64,000 nt of DNA from Mobula hypostoma (lineage: Eukaryota), in contig NC_086107.1 of NCBI RefSeq assembly GCF_963921235.1, forward strand, positions 113,276,001 through 113,340,000, written 5' to 3'. Positions 293-19,340 of this stretch are shown one piece after another. Positions within the stretch are counted from its first letter, which is position 1; each line of letters begins with the position of its first letter. The notes beneath the pieces were generated by a model. It saw only the letters and a list, made by a program, of their open reading frames with translations, was not told where the DNA came from and did no database searches. The position numbers were made by a program, and so were the translations under genes.

Positions 293-415
293 CTCTTTGC
301 CAGGTAGTAGATGTAGAACCATTTCATGCAGGGATGGGCTCTGTGGTGAGGGATGTGTTGTCTCTTAGGTTCTGTGGGTATGTCATGTCTTCTCACAAAG
401 AGCTCAGCCGCTTCA
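293..415 (-). CDS. Secretin-family prepro-hormone, exon 5 (123 nt, phase 2-2): (G)EAAELFVRR-HDIPTEPKRQHIPHHRAHPCMKWFYIYYLAK(R/S); gene continues beyond the window start
   Basis: Minus-strand acceptor ttccttctcattttcag| and donor AAGAG|gtaagt. Open in the frame set by the upstream exons. RR-H motif; same length as exon 4. No homology recognised, so membership rests on splice signals, phase and motif. Confidence 0.72.
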
Positions 416-5885: not shown

Positions 5886-6008
5886 CCTCTTTCAGGAGAC
5901 CGGAAGGCCGAGAGGAATTCTTTCATGTCCTGCAGGGTGATGGTAAGGCCACGATGAGTCATGTCGTCCCAGTGCTGGAGATGTCTCTTCACCTTCTTGG
6001 CAGTGGAA
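5886..6008 (-). CDS. Secretin-family prepro-hormone, exon 4 (123 nt, phase 2-2): (S)STAKKVKR-HLQHWDDMTHRGLTITLQDMKEFLSAFRSPER(G)
   Basis: Acceptor aatgctattttcag|, donor AGAGG|gtgagt, open frame in phase with exon 3, KVKR convertase site followed by His. Unique, non-repeat sequence. Confidence 0.78.
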
Positions 6009-8899
6009 CTGAAAATAGCATTGAAACTGAACAAAAACTTCACTCAAAGGGTTAATCTGCAGATTGCCGATTCTCTGGGATACTCTGGAGCTATTCCAGG
6101 TATAATTGCATTGAGGTGTACACTTAACATCATACCGGGAGGGGGTTTCGTGTGGATAAACCCCCACTACCTGTTAAATGCTCCCAACAGCATTCGTCGC
6201 AAATAGCCTCTGAAAACCGTTCAGCTCCTGGGGCTTCGCTACTAAGTCAGGTGGAACCGTTTCAACTGACAGGAGGAGGAGGCAAAGGCGGGTTGCTGGC
6301 ATCTTAAAACCAGTCATTTGGGGCAGACAAAATTCTGTAAACGCTAGAGAAAATCCCGGGAAATCAGCAGCTTCCGAGATGCTCAAACGAGCAATCATTC
6401 CATGGCCAGAAGTCATTTAGGTCACATTTCTTCCCCACTTTGATGTTTGGTCTGACCAGCAACCGAATCTCTTGACCATGTCTGCATGCTTTTATGTGTT
6501 GAGTTGCTGCCACATGATTGGCTGACTAGATATTTGCATTAACAGGCAGGTGTACAGGTATACTTAATACAGCGGCCACCAGGTGTATAAGGGTGCGTAC
6601 CAAGTCCTGGTACTTAAGTGGAGTACGATAATGTTCTTGACAGTTGGCATAGACTTGTAGATCTAAAGACTCATTTTTGTGCTCGAACAACTCCAGAACC
6701 CGGACTAATCTGGTGACAGTGGTTTCAATTCCACCAGGGTAATTCTGGAGATCAAATTTGAATAACTATATAAAGCTGGGAATAAATTCCCTCCGGTTTC
6801 TTTCTCTTTATTCCACAAGGGCACCATGGACTGCAGTGGTTAGTGCAATGCTAACATAGCACAGCGTGTCAATTCCAATGTCATCTGCAAGGAGTCTGTT
6901 CGTCCTCTTTGTCAATGTTTACGTTTCCTCCGGGTGCCCCAGTTTCCTCCCACAGTCCAAACGCTCACCAGCTAGTAGGTCATTTGGTCATTGTAAATCA
7001 GACCATAAGAGCATAAGATATAGGAGCAGAATTAGGCTATTTGGCCTATCAAGTCCGCTCTGCCATTTCATCATAGCTGATCCATTTTCCCTCTCAGCCC
7101 CAATCTCCTGCCTTCTCCCCGTAACCCTTCATGCCCTGACTAATCAAGAATTTATCAACCTCTGCCTTAAATATACTCAATAACTTGGCCTCCACAGCCA
7201 CCTCTGGCAATTAATTCCACAGATCCACCACCCTCTGGCTATTCCGCCTGATCTCTGTTCTAAAAGGATGCCCCTCTATTCTGAGGCTGTGTCCTCTGGT
7301 CTTAGACTCCCCCACTATAGAAAACATCCTCTCCACACCCACCCTATCGAGCCCTTTGTTCCATAATTAAGTTAGGGTTGAGAGCAGCTCGAAAGGCCGA
7401 CTCCCCACTGTATCTCAAAATAAATAAATATAACTTCCATGGCCTACTCAGATTCTTTCTTCTTCAGCTGTTTACCAGATGAGGGGGAGGGTAGGTGGCT
7501 GGGAGAAGGGGCAAGAAAGGGAATAATGTGAGAAGCTGCCTCTCATCTCCTAGCTTCTCACATCATTCTCTTTCATCTCCCCTCCCCTGCCCTCACCTGG
7601 TCTCACCTATCACCTGCCAGCTTGTGCTCCTACCCCCACCCCCTTTCCCCACACCTCCTTATTCTAGCTTCTGTCCCCTTCCTTGCCGGTCTTGATTAAG
7701 ATTCTTGGCCCGAGACATCAACTGTTTATTCCCCTCCATAGATACCGCCTGACCTGCTGAGTGCTTCCAGTATTTTGTGTGTGTTGCTGTAAATTTCTAC
7801 AACTGCGGGATCAGTAATGCCTGGGATTAAAAGGCTACAATTAGCCATTGTACCCAGGAGACACACAACTTGCCCTGAAAACCCACTTGATACTGCCTAC
7901 CTGCTGAGTTTGTTTTTTATTGCGGGTTTCGAGCCGCTGCAGTTTTGAACTTCTAACTTTCAGCAAGCTTCTCTTCACCTTTCACCTTTCCGAGAAAGCG
8001 CGGTCACGTTCTCAAGGTGGGTAAGGACAGCCGACAATTTGCACAGAGGGAGAGCTCTCAAGCAGCAGAACCCTATCAACGTTGTCAAGTGCATCTCCTC
8101 CACCCACCAGTCTCAGCTCGCGCCCCCCAACTTGTAAAACGCTTTTGGCGCCACGTTCAATGTTGTGCTCATTTCCAGGGAGCGGGGCTTTAACTCAGCT
8201 CTGCCTGCTTGCCTCTTATTTTTGGTTTCGAGGCCTCCTCCAGTCCCTCCAGTGAAAAGGTTTGATTGGTATGTGAGGAAAGCCTTTTGTCATCTTGTAA
8301 TTGAGATGTTAACCCAAGGGTGGGAGGGAAGGAAGGGCGGGGCTTGTTCTGATGTTGTTGTTTTGTTTACTTATGTATGTATTTATTTTTATTTAGAGAT
8401 ACAGCGCGAAATAGGCAGTCCCAGCCCTCCCAGCCATAACCCCCCAGTTTAACCCTAACCTAACCATGGGACAATTTACAATGACCAATTAATGTACTTT
8501 TGCCAAGAATACATCATATGATACAACACATAATGACAATGATGATAAATTAATCTACTAACCGGTACGCCTTTGGACTGTGTGAGGAAACTGGAGAACC
8601 CGGAAAAAACCCATGCATTCCATGGGAAGAACATTCAGACTCCTGACAGGGGATACTGGAATTGAACTTGGAACTCTGGTGCCCAGAGCTGTAATAGCGT
8701 TGCGCTAACCGCTACATTTCCGCGGCTTTGCCTGTTGTGTTCTCCATTGTTCTGCTGAGCTATCTTGGTGCCGGAATGTGTGGCGACACTTGCAGGCTGC
8801 CTCCAGCGGATGCTTAGGTTGTGATCGTTTTTAACGCAAATGGAGCATTTCACTGTATGCTTTGGTGTACACCTGATATATAAGTGGACCGAGATATAG

Positions 8900-9235
8900 A
8901 CCTGGACCAGAATCTCAACCTGGAAATGGATCTGGAAATGAAACAGGACCTGGATCTGGACCTGGATCTGGATCTGGATCTGGACCTGGATCTGGACCAG
9001 GATCTGAACCTGGATCTGGATATGGATATGGACCCGGATCTGGACCTGGATCTGGATATGGATATGGTCCCGAATCTGGATCTGGATCTGGACCTGGATC
9101 TGGACTCGGATCTGGACCTGGATCTGGACCCAGATCCGGATCTGGATCTGGACCAGGATCTGGATCTGGATCTGGATCTGGACCTGGATCTGGATCTGGA
9201 CCTGGATCTGGACCCGGATCTGGATCCGGATTTAG
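8900..9235. repeat. Hexamer tandem repeat (GATCTG/GACCTG)n
   Basis: Directly visible; produces the spurious DL/DP-repeat ORFs 8884..9255 and 8915..9271. Confidence 0.95.
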
Positions 9236-10193
9236 TTCTGTACTTTGTTTTGTAAATGTAAATGATCTCATGACACTAATCTGGAGGAGGATATCGGAGA
9301 TCTTCTCTATGTTCTAAACAATACTTATCACTTAACTGACCTAAGAAAAGCATATTCTTCGTTCATTATTACAGTGACCTTCATGATATTTTGCCTGGTA
9401 TAAACTAGCTACTGTTTTCTCTGCATCATATCAGTGACTACACTCCCACTACAATTCATTGTTTGTAAAGCTCTGGGAGATACTGCTAACATCACAAGGG
9501 CATAAGATATAGGAGCAGAACTAAGCCATTTGGCCCATTGAGTCTGCCCCATCATTCAAGCATGGCTGATTTATTATCCCTCTTAACCCTATTCTCTTGC
9601 CTTCTCGCTGTAACTTTTGTCACCCCGACAAATCAAGAATCTATCAACCTCCACTTTAAATATACCCAACGACAGCCTCCACAGCTGTCCCTGGCAATGA
9701 ATTGCACAGATCCACCATAGATTTGGCTAAAGAAATTCCTCCTCATCTCTATTCTGAAGGAACATCCTTGTATTCTGTGGTTCAGTCCTCTGGGTCTGGA
9801 CTCTCCCCCTCCCCACCCCATAGGAAATACCCTCTTCATATCCCCTCTATCTAGTCCTTTCAAAATTCAGTAGGTTTCAATGAGATCCTCCCTCACTCTA
9901 CTAAACTCCAGCAAATACAGGCCCAGAGCCATCAAATCCTCTTCCTACTTAACCCTTTCAACTCTTTCATTCTAGGGATCATTCTTATGAACCTGCTCTG
10001 GACCCTCTCCAATGTCAGCACACCCTTTGTTAGTCAAGGGGCCCAAAACCACTGACAGTTCTCCAAGTTAAACTCCTATCTAGAAACAAATCCCCATCTA
10101 GAAACTCTTGCCTCAGAATCAAGCAGATACCCGGTGAGGCAGCTGCCAGTGTTGTTACCAATTGTGGTTACTGGATCTTTCCAGAATACTTAC

Positions 10194-10298
10194 CTCGTTT
10201 GGGCCCCCAGTATCGAGTTCAGAAAGTTTCGAGCTGCAGTCCTTCCCCTCACTTTACTCAATTCACTGGTGAACAGACTGTCTGAGTGCCTCTTGTGT
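10194..10298 (-). CDS. Secretin-family prepro-hormone, exon 3 (105 nt, phase 2-2): (R)HKR-HSDSLFTSELSKVRGRTAARNFLNSILGAQT(S); secretin-like mature peptide starts at 10288
   Basis: Acceptor tcttctcttccatctcag| and donor ACGAG|gtaagt. KR followed by HSDxxFTSELSK is the secretin/VIP/glucagon-superfamily signature, with F22/L23/I26/L27 amphipathic-helix positions kept. Confidence 0.93.
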
Positions 10299-11232: not shown

Positions 11233-12323
11233 GCAACACACATCAAAGTTGCTGGTGAACGCAGCAGGCCAGGCAGCATCTCTAGGAAGAGGTACAGTCG
11301 ACGTTTCGGGCCGAGACCCTTCGTCAGGACTAACTGAAGGAAGAGTGAGTAAGAGATTTGAAAGCTGGAGGGGGAGGGGGAGATCCAAAATGATAGGAGA
11401 AGACAGGAGGGGGAGGGATGGAGCCAAGAGCTGGACAGGTGATAGGCAAAAGGGATATGAGAGGATCATGGGACAGGAGGCCCAGGGAGAAGGAAAAGGG
11501 GGAGGGGGGAAAACCCAGTGGATGGGCAAGGGGTATAGTCGGAGAGACAGAGGGAGAAAAAGGAGAGAGAGAGAAAGAAAAACAATGTGTGTATATAAAT
11601 AAATAACGGATGGGGTACGAGGGGGAGGTGGGGCACTAGTGGAAGTTTGAGAAGTCAATGTTCATGCCATCAGGTTGGAGGCTATCCAGGTGGAATATAA
11701 GGTGTTGTTCCTCCAACCTGAGTGTGGCTTCATCTTTACAGTAGAGGAGGCCGTGGATAGACATGTCAGAATGGGAATGGGATGTGGAATTAAAATATGT
11801 GGCCACTGGGAGATCCTGCTTTCTCTGGCAGACAGAGCGTAGGTGTTCAGCAAGACGATCTCCCAGTCTGTGTCAGGTCTCGCCAATATATAGAAGGCCA
11901 TATCGGGAGCACTGGACGCAGTATATCACCCCAGATGACTCACAGGTGAAGTGTCGCCTCACCTGGGAGGACTGTCTGGGGCCCTGAATGGTGATAAGGG
12001 AGGAAGTGTAAGGGCATGTGTAGCACTTGTTCCGCTTACAAGGATAAGTGCCAGGAGGGAGATCGATGGGGAGGGATGGGGGGTATCAAAGGACAAGGGA
12101 GTCGTGTAGGGAGCAATCCCTGCGGAAAGCGGTGGGGGGGAGGGAGGGAAAGATGTGCTTAGTGGTGGGATCCCATTGGAGATGGCGGAAGTTACGGAGA
12201 ATAATATGTTGGACCTGGAGGCTGGTGGGTTGGTAGGTGAGGACCAGGGGAACCCTATTCCTAGTGGGGTGGCAGGAGGATGGAGTGAGAGCAGATGTGC
12301 GTGAAATGGGGGAGATGCGTTTA
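11233..12323 (-). mobile_element. 5'-truncated Penelope-like retroelement (Cys-rich linker, GIY-YIG endonuclease, 3' end)
   Basis: Close relative of the 15704-17965 arms. Flanked by a 14-bp direct repeat agcaatattttatg (11220-11233, 12323-12336). Confidence 0.88.
11296..11331 (-). ncRNA. Minimal type I hammerhead ribozyme motif (Penelope-associated)
   Basis: Minus strand: AGUC-CUGACGA-aGGG(ucucgg)CCC-GAAA-CGUC^GACU. Intact core, stem I AGUC/GACU, palindromic ACGU stem III. Confidence 0.75.
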
Positions 12324-14012: not shown

Positions 14013-14101
14013 CTGCGTGCTGTCGGGAAGGACTGTGCCACTTGGAGAATGAAAGCCACCATCAGGAGGATCTGAACTTTGAGCCAGGGTCTCCCAGCCA
14101 T
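14013..14101 (-). CDS. Secretin-family prepro-hormone, coding part of exon 2 (exon 14105-14013): signal peptide MAGRPWLKVQILLMVAFILQVAQS-FPTAR(R)
   Basis: Acceptor tctacctttgcag|GACCATGG with a strong Kozak context. Basic n-region, hydrophobic h-region, A-Q-S cleavage motif. Donor CGCAG|gtgagc in phase 2 joins exon 3 in frame (RRHKR-HSD). Confidence 0.9.
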
Positions 14102-14301
14102 GGTCCTGCAAAGGTAGAATCGATTAGAATCTCAAGACTGTTGGAAATTGTTCTGACTTTCTTGCAGTCACCTTCCTGCTCCGTTACCCAACCATCTTCA
14201 GAAGAATCGGGCAGATTAGGATTCAGATCCAGGTCTAGAACAGGCCAATAAATAACTTGGCCCATTTCTTGGAATATTATGAATCAGCTGATTTTACTGC
14301 T

Positions 14302-14433: not shown

Positions 14434-16831
14434 TTAGATTTCTAAAAATGTTCTTCCTTCATGCAATGGCATCTATCACCCAGCCCTAAATGCCCTGAAA
14501 TGAAGATACAGTTCAGTCAACTATAGAGAGGTGTTGAGAAGACTCGAAACAATTATTTAAAGGGGCGCTTGAAATTTTTGGATGGCGGGATGGAGATACA
14601 TCTCTACTAAAGGAGGCGTAAGGCACTGCCTTCCCTCCGCTAGGCTGAAGGTCACCCTTGGGGAGGTGTAGCACCTGCTTAGCCCCAATCATGGTCATGA
14701 AAAGCCATGGGAGCAGGTAGTGGATGGTCATACGAGCAGCTGGTGCATATCACATATCCTGGTTATGCGGCCACTGACGCCAGGCAGACAGTCTCTGAAG
14801 AGTACTGATCGTGGCTGGGTTCAGCTGTCTTGCCCAGAAGAAGGCAATGGCAGAGCACTTCTGTAGAAAGTTTGCCAGGTGCAATCATGGCTATGAGACC
14901 GTGATCGCCCATGTTGTACGACACAGCACATAATGACGATGATGATGACTTGGAATTAATGTAACCTGTCTTTGTGCCGTCCTTCCAAGTAAACCAAAAG
15001 CTGGACTATTCACTTAATCTCAGAGCCGATCTGCCTGCTTTAGAACATAGAACACTACAGCACAGTACAGATCCTCAGCCCACTGTGTTGTGCTGATCTT
15101 TTAACCTACTCAGATCAATCTAACCCTTCCCTCCCACATAGCCCTCCATTTTTCTATCATCCATGTGCCTATCTAAGAGTTCTTCCAGGTCCCTAATAAA
15201 TCTGCCTCAACTATCACCCCTGGCAGTGCTTTCCATGTACCCACCACACTCTGCGTAAAAAATTACTTCTGACATCCCCTCTATACTTTCCTCCAATCAT
15301 TTAAAATTATGTCCCCTTTGTATCAGCCATTTCCGTCATTGGCAGTTCACCCAGTCTATGCCCCTTATCATCTTTACACCTCTATCAAGTCACCTCACAT
15401 CCTCCTTCACTCCAAAGGGAAAAGCCCTAGCTCGCTCATAAAACAGGGTCTCTAATCCAGGCAGCATCCTGGTAAATCTCCTCTGCACCCCCTGTGAAGG
15501 TTCCACATCCTTCACATAATGAGGCGACCAGAACTGAACACAATATTCCAAGTGAGATCTAAACAGGGCTTTATGGAGCTGCAACATTACCTCACGGCTC
15601 TTGAACCCAAACCCCCAACTAATGAAGGCCAACACACTATGCATCTTCTTAACCACCCTATCAACTTGCATACAACAGGAATTCTGCAGATGCTGGAAAT
15701 TCAAGCAACACACATCAAAGTTGCTGGTGAACGCAGCAGGCCAAGCAGCATCTATAGGAAGAGGCGCAGTCGACGTTTCAGGCCGAGACCCTTCGTCAGG
15801 ACTAACTGAAGGAAGAGTGAGTAAGGGATTTGAAAGCTGGAGGGGGAGGGGGAGATGCAAAATGATAGGAGAAGACAGGAGGGGGAGGGATGGAGCCGAG
15901 AGCTGGACAGGTGATAGGCAGAAGGGGATACGAGAGGATCATGGGACAGGAGGTCCGGGAAGAAAGACGGGGGGGGGGTGACCCAGAGGATGGGCAAGAG
16001 GTATATTCAGAGGGACAGAGGGAGAAAAAGGAGAGTGAGAGAAAGAATGTGTGCATAAAAAAGAGTAACAGATGGGGTACGAGGGGGAGGTGGGGCCTAG
16101 CGGAAGTTAGAGAAGTCAATGTTCATGCCATCAGGTTGGAGGCTACCCATACGGAATATAAGGTGTTGTTCCTCCAACCTGAGTGTGGCTTCATCTTTAC
16201 AGTAGAGGAGGCCGTGGATAGACATGTCAGAATGGGAATGGGATGTGGAATTAAAATGTGTGGCCACTGGGAGATCCTGCTTTCTCTGGCGGACAGAGCG
16301 TAGATGTTCAGCAAAGCGGTCTCCCAGTCTGCGTCGGGTCTCACCAATATATAAAAGGCCACATCGGGAGCACCGGACGCAGTATATCACCCCAGTCGAC
16401 TCACAGGTGAAGTGATGCCTCACCTGGAAGGACTGTTTGGGGCCCTGAATGGTGGTAAGGGAGGAAGTGTAAGGGCATGTGTAGCACTTGTTCCGCTTAC
16501 ACGGATAAGTGCCAGGAGGGAGATCAGTGGGGAGGGATGGGGGGGACGAATGGACAAGGGAGTTGTGTAGGGAGCGATCCCTGCGGAATGCAGAGAGAGG
16601 GGTGGAGGGAAAGATATGCTTAGTGGTGGGATCCCGTTGGAGGTGGCGGAAGTTACGGAGAATAATATGTTGGACCCGGAGGCTGGTGGGGTGGTAGGTG
16701 AGGACCAGGGGAACCCTATTCCTAGTGGGGTGGTGGGAGGATGGAGTGAGAGCAGATGTACGTGAAATGGGGGAGATGCGTTTAAGAGCAGAGTTGATAG
16801 TGGAGGAAGGGAAGCCCCTTTCTTTAAAAAA

Positions 16832-17572
16832 TCTTCATTTTTTAAAGAAAGGGGCTTCCCTTCCTCCACTATCAACTCTGCTCTTAAACGCATCTCCCCC
16901 ATTTCACGTACATCTGCTCTCACTCCATCCTCCCACCACCCCACTAGGAATAGGGTTCCCCTGGTCCTCACCTACCACCCCACCAGCCTCCGGGTCCAAC
17001 ATATTATTCTCCGTAACTTCCGCCACCTCCAACGGGATCCCACCACTAAGCATATCTTTCCCTCCACCCCTCTCTCTGCATTCCGCAGGGATCGCTCCCT
17101 ACACAACTCCCTTGTCCATTCGTCCCCCCCATCCCTCCCCACTGATCTCCCTCCTGGCACTTATCCGTGTAAGCGGAACAAGTGCTACACATGCCCTTAC
17201 ACTTCCTCCCTTACCACCATTCAGGGCCCCAAACAGTCCTTCCAGGTGAGGCATCACTTCACCTGTGAGTCGACTGGGGTGATATACTGCGTCCGGTGCT
17301 CCCGATGTGGCCTTTTATATATTGGTGAGACCCGACGCAGACTGGGAGACCGCTTTGCTGAACATCTACGCTCTGTCCGCCAGAGAAAGCAGGATCTCCC
17401 AGTGGCCACACATTTTAATTCCACATCCCATTCCCATTCTGACATGTCTATCCACGGCCTCCTCTACTGTAAAGATGAAGCCACACTCAGGTTGGAGGAA
17501 CAACACCTTATATTCCGTATGGGTAGCCTCCAACCTGATGGCATGAACATTGACTTCTCTAACTTCCGCTAG
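16832..17572 (+). CDS. Penelope-like ORF C-terminal fragment: RT thumb region, Cys-rich linker and GIY-YIG endonuclease (mirror copy 16097-16832 on minus); 5'-truncated, no start codon
   Basis: Uninterrupted frame SSFFKERGFP..VPLVLTYHP..PGTYPCKRNKCYTC..FTCESTGVIYCVRCSRCGLLYIGETRRRLGDRFAEH..VATHFN..EQHLIFRMGSLQPDGMN. A Cys-rich linker is typical of the Neptune group. Confidence 0.88.
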   Translation, partial: SSFFKERGFPSSTINSALKRISPISRTSALTPSSHHPTRNRVPLVLTYHPTSLRVQHIILRNFRHLQRDPTTKHIFPSTPLSAFRRDRSLHNSLVHSSPPSLPTDLPPGTYPCKRNKCYTCPYTSSLTTIQGPKQSFQVRHHFTCESTGVIYCVRCSRCGLLYIGETRRRLGDRFAEHLRSVRQRKQDLPVATHFNSTSHSHSDMSIHGLLYCKDEATLRLEEQHLIFRMGSLQPDGMNIDFSNFR

Positions 17573-17865
17573 GCCCCACCTCCCCCTCGTACCCCATCTG
17601 TTACTCTTTTTTATGCACACATTCTTTCTCTCACTCTCCTTTTTCTCCCTCTGTCCCTCTGAATATACCTCTTGCCCATCCTCTGGGTCACCCCCCCCCC
17701 GTCTTTCTTCCCGGACCTCCTGTCCCATGATCCTCTCGTATCCCCTTCTGCCTATCACCTGTCCAGCTCTCGGCTCCATCCCTCCCCCTCCTGTCTTCTC
17801 CTATCATTTTGCATCTCCCCCTCCCCCTCCAGCTTTCAAATCCCTTACTCACTCTTCCTTCAGTT

Positions 17866-17901
17866 AGTCCTGACGAAGGGTCTCGGCCTGAAACGTCGAC
17901 T
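17866..17901 (+). ncRNA. Minimal hammerhead ribozyme motif (mirror copy 15768-15803, minus strand)
   Basis: AGUC-CUGACGA-AGG(gucucgg)CCU-GAAA-CGUC^GACU. Confidence 0.75.
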
Positions 17902-18149
17902 GCGCCTCTTCCTATAGATGCTGCTTGGCCTGCTGCGTTCACCAGCAACTTTGATGTGTGTTGCTATCAACTTGCATGGCAACTTTGAGGAATCTATGGA
18001 TGAGGACCCCAAGAACCCTCTGTTCTTCCACACCATCAAGAATCCTGCTATTAACCTTCTATTCTACCTTCAAATTCAACCTTCCAACATGATTCTTCCC
18101 ATCTCTTGGAGGAATGTACACAGATCCCTGCTTCACACAGCAGAAAGAT

Positions 18150-19207: not shown

Positions 19208-19340
19208 CTATATACTCTCCTGATCTTGAGATCACCGGATATATCCACTCACTCAAAGCCTGCTTCTTTGATTCACTCCCATAATTGACAAGCAAACTGT
19301 CTTTTATCTTGCTCATGGAAGGTCAAGGTTAGATAAACCA
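19208..19340 (-). promoter_or_regulatory. Putative core promoter of the secretin-family gene
   Basis: TATATAG on minus at 19214-19208, GATA motifs (ttatct 19304-19309, agataa 19331-19336), and nuclear-receptor half-site-like aaggtca/tcaaggtta at ~19319-19331. Confidence 0.55.

Follow-up and report, generated by a model that had tools for sequence, protein, structure and literature searches.

A second secretin-like gene in the ray Mobula hypostoma, shared with sharks and probably a paralogue of secretin

Which member of the secretin/glucagon superfamily is encoded by the window, i.e. the whole stretch of 64,000 nucleotides analysed here (C45:113.276-113.340 Mb, on a 117-Mb contig), is the question raised by this locus. 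A six-frame scan of the window found one secretin-type peptide start, located in exon 10298-10194, which has AG/GT borders in phase 2 on both sides, a pyrimidine-rich acceptor and a GTAAGT donor, and matches the Pfam family Hormone_2 (PF00123) with an E of 1.6e-9. The secretin-family peptide originally predicted here is thus present as described, and it belongs to the superfamily, as it shows His1-x-Asp3-x-x-Phe6-Thr7 and follows a basic site within a precursor that is secreted. The original prediction took the peptide for a mosaic of secretin and VIP; the main point, which it overlooked, is that this is the second secretin-like gene in the genome. The gene, designated SCT-B here, is an unannotated and so far unnamed vertebrate hormone gene with the following features (window positions unless stated otherwise):

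14013..14105, minus strand: signal-peptide exon, in which 29 codons and 2 further nt run from the ATG at 14101 to a phase-2 donor.
10194..10298, minus strand: hormone exon (105 nt), encoding a basic pro-site and mature residues 1-31, with His1 at 10288 and Ser4.
5886..6008, minus strand: third coding exon (123 nt), encoding peptide residues 32-38, the processing sites and the start of the C-terminal propeptide.
5984..5998, minus strand: K-K-V-K-R processing region, with the ray-only KK at 5998-5993 and KR of the conserved K-x-K-R at 5989-5984.
293..415, minus strand: fourth coding exon (123 nt), with the motif P-C-x-x-W-F-x-x-Y-Y common to sharks.
C45:113,272,888-113,272,774 (locus L031): fifth coding exon with the stop codon, about 3.1 kb past the window start.

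The five exons join in phase 2 to give 184 codons without internal stops. The signal-peptide exon is the sole hydrophobic ATG exon with a phase-2 donor 5' of the hormone exon (one of the two listed), and its product shares 55% identity with the N-terminus of a shark orthologue; the third coding exon (6008-5886) matches a shark orthologue in tblastn with an E of 0.008, while exon 415-293 is single copy in the genome (one of eight matches significant). Another last-exon candidate, L031:4139-4222, was rejected for its wrong phase. Record 1 of contig X1 (1709 nt) is a spliced transcript uniting exons 6008-5886 and 415-293, which occupy its positions 335-457 and 458-580 with no mismatches; X1 represents one of three sequencing runs, all from one study and none recorded as RNA, its RNA nature being guessed. 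The first 334 nt of X1 leave room for two exons (105 + 93), and the remaining 136 nt are presumably 5' UTR, for which the TATA-like motif near 19214 does not account by itself. The joint 10194-6008 and the hormone and signal exons are absent among the X1 read matches listed. The original prediction depended on there being no additional exon between 10194 and 6008 that supplies a standard processing site, and none was seen: the scan gave no candidates under its thresholds, and in all three shark orthologue proteins the hormone peptide continues directly into the tail.

Three repeat structures were observed around these exons. The last coding exon has its 3' half repeated about 750 bp downstream (L031:6095-5975), beside part of the following repeat in inverted orientation. 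A 2262-bp near-perfect palindrome (99.8%) lies 5' of the signal exon at 15704-17965, with its repeat also found at 11233-12323, and is either a real hairpin or an assembly artefact. The intron between the hormone exon and the third exon contains a hexamer-type tandem repeat (8877-9314), which gives rise to long spurious open frames.

Orthologues of SCT-B are found in three sharks. In an exhaustive protein search, one of the 58 matches, at 76% identity, is the hypothetical protein GCB75653.1 of Scyliorhinus torazame, and two further orthologues are the uncharacterized LOC119956275 of S. canicula and LOC144669437 of Cetorhinus maximus. The ray peptide is identical to each of the three in 20 of 27 residues. 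The Ser at position 4 pointed out by the original prediction is confirmed and, like the tail, is kept in all three sharks; of the 176 peptide starts of the family in the proteins retrieved, four have it, each in an SCT-B orthologue record. A word-index protein search with a 43-residue open frame as the query matched none of 42 candidates, and a profile search with 8000 scored candidates returned the same three sharks only, and SCT-B may occur in other lineages too; no orthologue from bony fish or a chimaera turned up in the protein searches.

No G-K/R-R follows peptide residue 27, as originally noted, and the reading frame passes into exon 6008-5886, where the ray has KK as peptide residues 36-37 and KR as residues 39-40. 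A peptide of about 35 residues spanning two exons had been predicted to be released at KK; the count to KK is arithmetically right and two exons are indeed involved, but KK is not a shared site, as it is missing from all three sharks, while K-x-K-R is kept in all, with KR at position 39 in the ray and the two catsharks and at 41 in the basking shark. The conserved product is therefore an unamidated peptide of 38-40 residues; that of the ray is likely a 38-residue free acid, and a 35-mer could be no more than a minor form confined to the ray. In the sharks, Gly-Lys is located two residues ahead of KR, and a shorter amidated form may be produced there. Contrary to the original prediction, the lack of an amidation signal does not single out SCT-B, since the signal is also missing after the first peptide in 11 of 11 secretin precursors from birds, turtles and squamates and in the canonical-type secretin gene of the ray (gene A, see below). 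The signal is likewise missing after the second peptide of turtle secretin precursors (3/3 records), while frog secretin has GKR (PMC3084839, in the part available). In exon 415-293, a ray-only KR is followed by Gln and could release a pyroglutamyl, cysteine-containing peptide; its equation with the pyroglutamyl peptide of zebrafish sct (available part of PMC12714231) was dropped, as this KR is missing in the sharks.

The processing, receptor and tissue of SCT-B, like its ohnology, we infer. The 184-residue precursor would enter the secretory pathway via its signal peptide, which would be cleaved off; a prohormone convertase would then cut after the KR preceding His1 and after K-x-K-R, and a carboxypeptidase would trim the basic pair, yielding the 38-residue unamidated peptide and a two-cysteine C-terminal propeptide. 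Signal cleavage, convertase cuts and carboxypeptidase trimming are established prohormone biology. With its C-terminal helix, the peptide would bind a class B1 receptor at the extracellular domain, His1-Asp3-Phe6 reaching into the core, and receptor activation would act through Gs and cAMP, resulting in a secretin-like action. The secretin receptor is a tentative first guess for this receptor, and cross-activity on VPAC receptors is likely to be found. Since position 4 influences PAC1/VPAC selectivity (PMC9331257, accessible portion), Ser4 should disfavour PAC1.

The genome gave 17 Hormone_2 matches, three of them weak or partial, among which glucagon is located on C18, PACAP on C1, GHRH on C2, a VIP/PHI-like cluster on C22 and two secretin-like exons on C45. 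The GHRH gene clusters with skate somatoliberin in the tree. It retains a second, PACAP-like hormone exon (C2:185,894,145 and 185,897,428), which is also present in skate somatoliberin records; GHRH is reportedly called single-exon in reviews. The VIP-type locus (C22:7.12-7.21 Mb) contains one PHI-like exon and a diverged VIP-like exon without His1, together with five more near-identical copies of the PHI-like exon at about 2.4 kb spacing in two opposed groups, and PHI-like peptides are also repeated in skate 'VIP peptides-like' proteins. The second secretin-like exon on C45 belongs to gene A:

C45:685,084-715,272: gene A, with the signal exon at 685,084, the hormone exon at 704,591-704,695 and the last exon at 715,170.

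Gene A is the orthologue of secretin. In its last exon, it matches bird secretin with z of 9.0-10.5 in all four passerine records and turtle secretin with z of 3.9, while no match was found to the squamate tail or the alternative bird tail; one of ten VIP controls also reached z 7.0. A SAND exon (494 kb), presumably of DEAF1, is located 210 kb away on one side, and an IRF gene (930-946 kb) lies 225-241 kb away on the other. The identity of this IRF gene is ambiguous, as one exon scores 62.4 for an IRF4-type, 59.0 for IRF7 and 56.1 for IRF3, and the other 42.5 for IRF3 and 38.2 for IRF7; a cadherin search for CDHR5 (150 scored of 868 candidates) gave no match on C45. The elephant shark prosecretin locus has the same gene order as the neighbourhood of gene A (PMC12714231, in part). 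Gene A has no amidation signal and is predicted to yield a 29-residue free acid from a seemingly short three-exon precursor.

SCT-B and gene A lie on opposite arms of C45. The downstream flank of SCT-B, the one covered here, contains a GIY-YIG exon at 31 kb, presumably of SLX1, and an IGF gene at 79-91 kb, so that SCT-B does not occupy the position of SCT in the block DEAF1-DRD4-SCT-CDHR5-IRF7. The neighbouring IGF is closest to IGF2 in PDB (53.6 vs 35.3 bits) and is likely IGF3; the available part of PMC12702675 contains nothing on IGF3 synteny. This third IGF gene, at C45:113,195,567-113,207,348 (113.2 Mb), is distinct from the insulin-family pair at 59.2 Mb, which is read as INS-IGF2 from its tandem position alone and whose IGF2 is 58 Mb away from gene A.

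Several other families have members on both arms. Neurotrophin genes are located at 25.0 Mb (BDNF 214.6 vs NT4 124.9 bits) and 90.3 Mb (BDNF 164.6 vs NT4 161.7 bits), and represent BDNF and an NTF4-like gene, respectively; TEAD genes are found at 3.4 and 103.7 Mb, and IRF genes at 0.94 and 109.8 Mb, the latter matching IRF3 best in both exons (IRF3 vs IRF7, 53.8 vs 44.0 and 59.3 vs 34.0 bits). Genome-wide, three neurotrophin matches were obtained, one on C66 and two on C45, and one of NGF and NTF3 may be missing from the assembly or from the search. Four to five gene families are paired across the two arms. IRF3 and IRF7 are described as ohnologues of one paralogon (available part of PMC12220609), and human 11p (BDNF, FSH-beta) and 19q13.3 (NTF4, LH-beta) as sister sets of the second duplication (PMC3280201, in part). 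With its paired paralogues, C45 looks like a fusion of two sister segments, each with a secretin-like gene, and appears to have united mutually paralogous 11p-type and 19q13-type segments; SCT-B is located within the segment paralogous to the secretin region. As the shark orthologues are placed on sequences of 27.7 and 26.2 Mb, the data suggest that the site of SCT-B predates the fusion of C45.

Sequence comparisons point in the same direction less firmly. In a tree of 58 peptides and 27 columns, ray and shark SCT-B form their own clade (87/81), which lies outside VIP/PACAP (97/96) and is unplaced with respect to PHI, GHRH and secretin. In a second tree of 53 rows and 27 columns, SCT-B groups with the secretins and gene A at 69/68 on an unstarred branch, a grouping that arises only after the removal of five rows that were overlong or aberrant (two peptides from frog and one each from shark, bird and squamate). 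In this 53-row tree, the grouping of SCT-B with VIP is rejected (p-AU 0.017), while that with PHI is not (p-AU 0.105). The original prediction is supported in that the peptide is neither the known chondrichthyan secretin nor the known PHI. None of the four SCT-B tails exceeds shuffles against a secretin last-exon profile (sauropsid L/I-C-P motif), and in pairwise tail scores secretin is not separable from VIP controls. The tail contains two cysteines in the ray and all three sharks, one in 7/7 secretins and none in 13/13 VIP/GHRH precursors, and its motif C-x-x-W recalls one bird secretin exon (z 3.5 in the ray, not significant in the three sharks). Atlas ranks a secretin cluster first for SCT-B (0.94), with recognition under the Atlas threshold. 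Taken by itself, the sequence leans towards a secretin affinity without proving it, and most of the argument for secretin paralogy comes from chromosomal position.

SCT-B is thus probably a functional prohormone gene and a paralogue of secretin, most likely derived from the second round of genome duplication in vertebrates and retained by sharks and rays; that it is a true second-round ohnologue of secretin is slightly favoured. A later secretin duplicate, arisen on the stem of the chondrichthyans or elasmobranchs (perhaps along with IGF2), relocated and with the same processing and receptor class, is an unlikely source: the IGF2-like character of the neighbouring IGF, the identical first 12 nt of the gene A and SCT-B hormone exons and the recovery of orthologues from sharks only are all in line with it, whereas the two ray peptides share 14/27 residues against 20/27 between ray and shark SCT-B, a chance arrival in precisely the segment sister to its own is improbable, and gene A and IGF2 are far apart here. 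Even less probable is an origin from a PHI-, PRP- or GHRH-type exon, e.g. the missing fourth VIP/PACAP/GHRH copy, which would have lost its partner exon, been translocated and act on VPAC/GHRH-type receptors. The tail cysteines, a location fitting the secretin paralogon and the best tree, which favours secretin, argue against this origin; the highest 27-residue identity of SCT-B beyond its own group (PHI-like peptides, 16/27), the p-AU of the PHI grouping and the match of the tail alone to a GHRH cluster in Atlas (0.86, a lead only) argue for it. The length of 105 nt was dropped as a diagnostic of secretin hormone exons, as GHRH and PHI-like exons are equally long.

The original reading, an ancestral-type mosaic of secretin and VIP giving a 35-mer cut at KK and related to helodermin or convergent with it, is very improbable. 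Its LNSIL is indeed identical to residues 23-27 of human VIP, the ray does have KK, and the peptide scores highest against VIP in PDB (20.6 bits, followed by PACAP38 with 17.8, GHRH with 16.1, secretin with 15.4 and exendin-3 with 12.6). The peptide is encoded, however, by one ordinary 105-nt exon, which leaves no exon mosaic, its identity to VIP-type peptides (11-13/27) is not above that to PHI-type ones (up to 16/27), the VIP grouping is rejected, no shark has KK, and the origin of the exendin genes is placed in the glucagon-related Gcgl/Gcrp gene (PMC8312260, in part). That SCT-B is simply the orthologue of the known chondrichthyan secretin is largely refuted, being the least credible of all: its N-terminal half is secretin-like and elephant shark prosecretin has been published (PMC12714231, available portion), but gene A owns the secretin last exon and the SAND/IRF surroundings, while the neighbours of SCT-B are the presumed SLX1 and an IGF.

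In the standing model, a single progenitor gave rise to four genes (PMC3434177 and PMC5207463, in part), and one SCT gene is named in the available parts of PMC2880984 and PMC7251081. No description of a second secretin gene was found in the literature, nor any occurrence of the three shark gene identifiers in the works surveyed; shark genome supplements and key subscription papers lay outside the search, and an earlier mention is possible. By adding a fifth gene, one located in the segment paralogous to the secretin locus, SCT-B would contradict the four-gene count, which is testable by synteny and receptor assays. If it is a true ohnologue, the secretin ancestor already occupied an ancestral chromosome of its own when the last genome doubling took place, the view of secretin as the fourth copy of a single VIP/PACAP/GHRH/SCT progenitor is wrong, and the jawed vertebrates started out with five or more genes of this kind. 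Elasmobranchs would then retain a hormone of 38 residues with Ser4 that is new to the literature and may be the ligand of an orphan class B1 receptor, and in other lineages SCT-B would have been lost or have escaped annotation. The peptide also offers a natural Ser4 ligand, the position tied to PAC1/VPAC selectivity in the accessible portion of PMC9331257.

Among the known systems, PACAP38 and GHRH resemble SCT-B in their long forms (38-44 residues), while their identity to it is 10/27 and both genes are located elsewhere (C1 and C2). The tail of human GHRH likewise crosses an intron. Helodermin, helospectin and the exendins are family members with a C-terminal extension, and exendin-3 scores below VIP, PACAP, GHRH and secretin against SCT-B. 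The exendin gene is related to Gcgl/Gcrp in PMC8312260, and exendins are called weaponised VIP in PMC11209219; the available parts of both do not tie them to the SCT-B locus, and convergence is the simpler reading of the proposed helodermin likeness. VIP shares the LNSIL end with SCT-B, and PHI-like peptides come nearest to SCT-B in identity outside its own group; unlike PHI/VIP, SCT-B has one hormone exon rather than two (no second one nearby or in the three shark proteins), and the VIP-type locus is on C22. The sauropsid SCT-LP, the first peptide of bird and turtle SCT precursors, is similarly unamidated and extends past residue 27-28 (11/11 precursors), but it is encoded by a tandem exon inside the SCT gene, whereas SCT-B is a separate gene, and the two share 8-10/27 residues. 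Secretin itself (elephant shark prosecretin LOC121850333 and zebrafish sct; PMC12714231, in part) has, like SCT-B, a signal exon, one 105-nt hormone exon and a cysteine-bearing C-terminal propeptide, and 12-13 of 27 residues are identical between SCT-B and bird and turtle secretin. SCT-B differs from secretin in its location outside the DEAF1-DRD4-CDHR5-IRF7 locus, in Ser4, in its conserved length of 38-40 residues and in a tail without detectable last-exon similarity.
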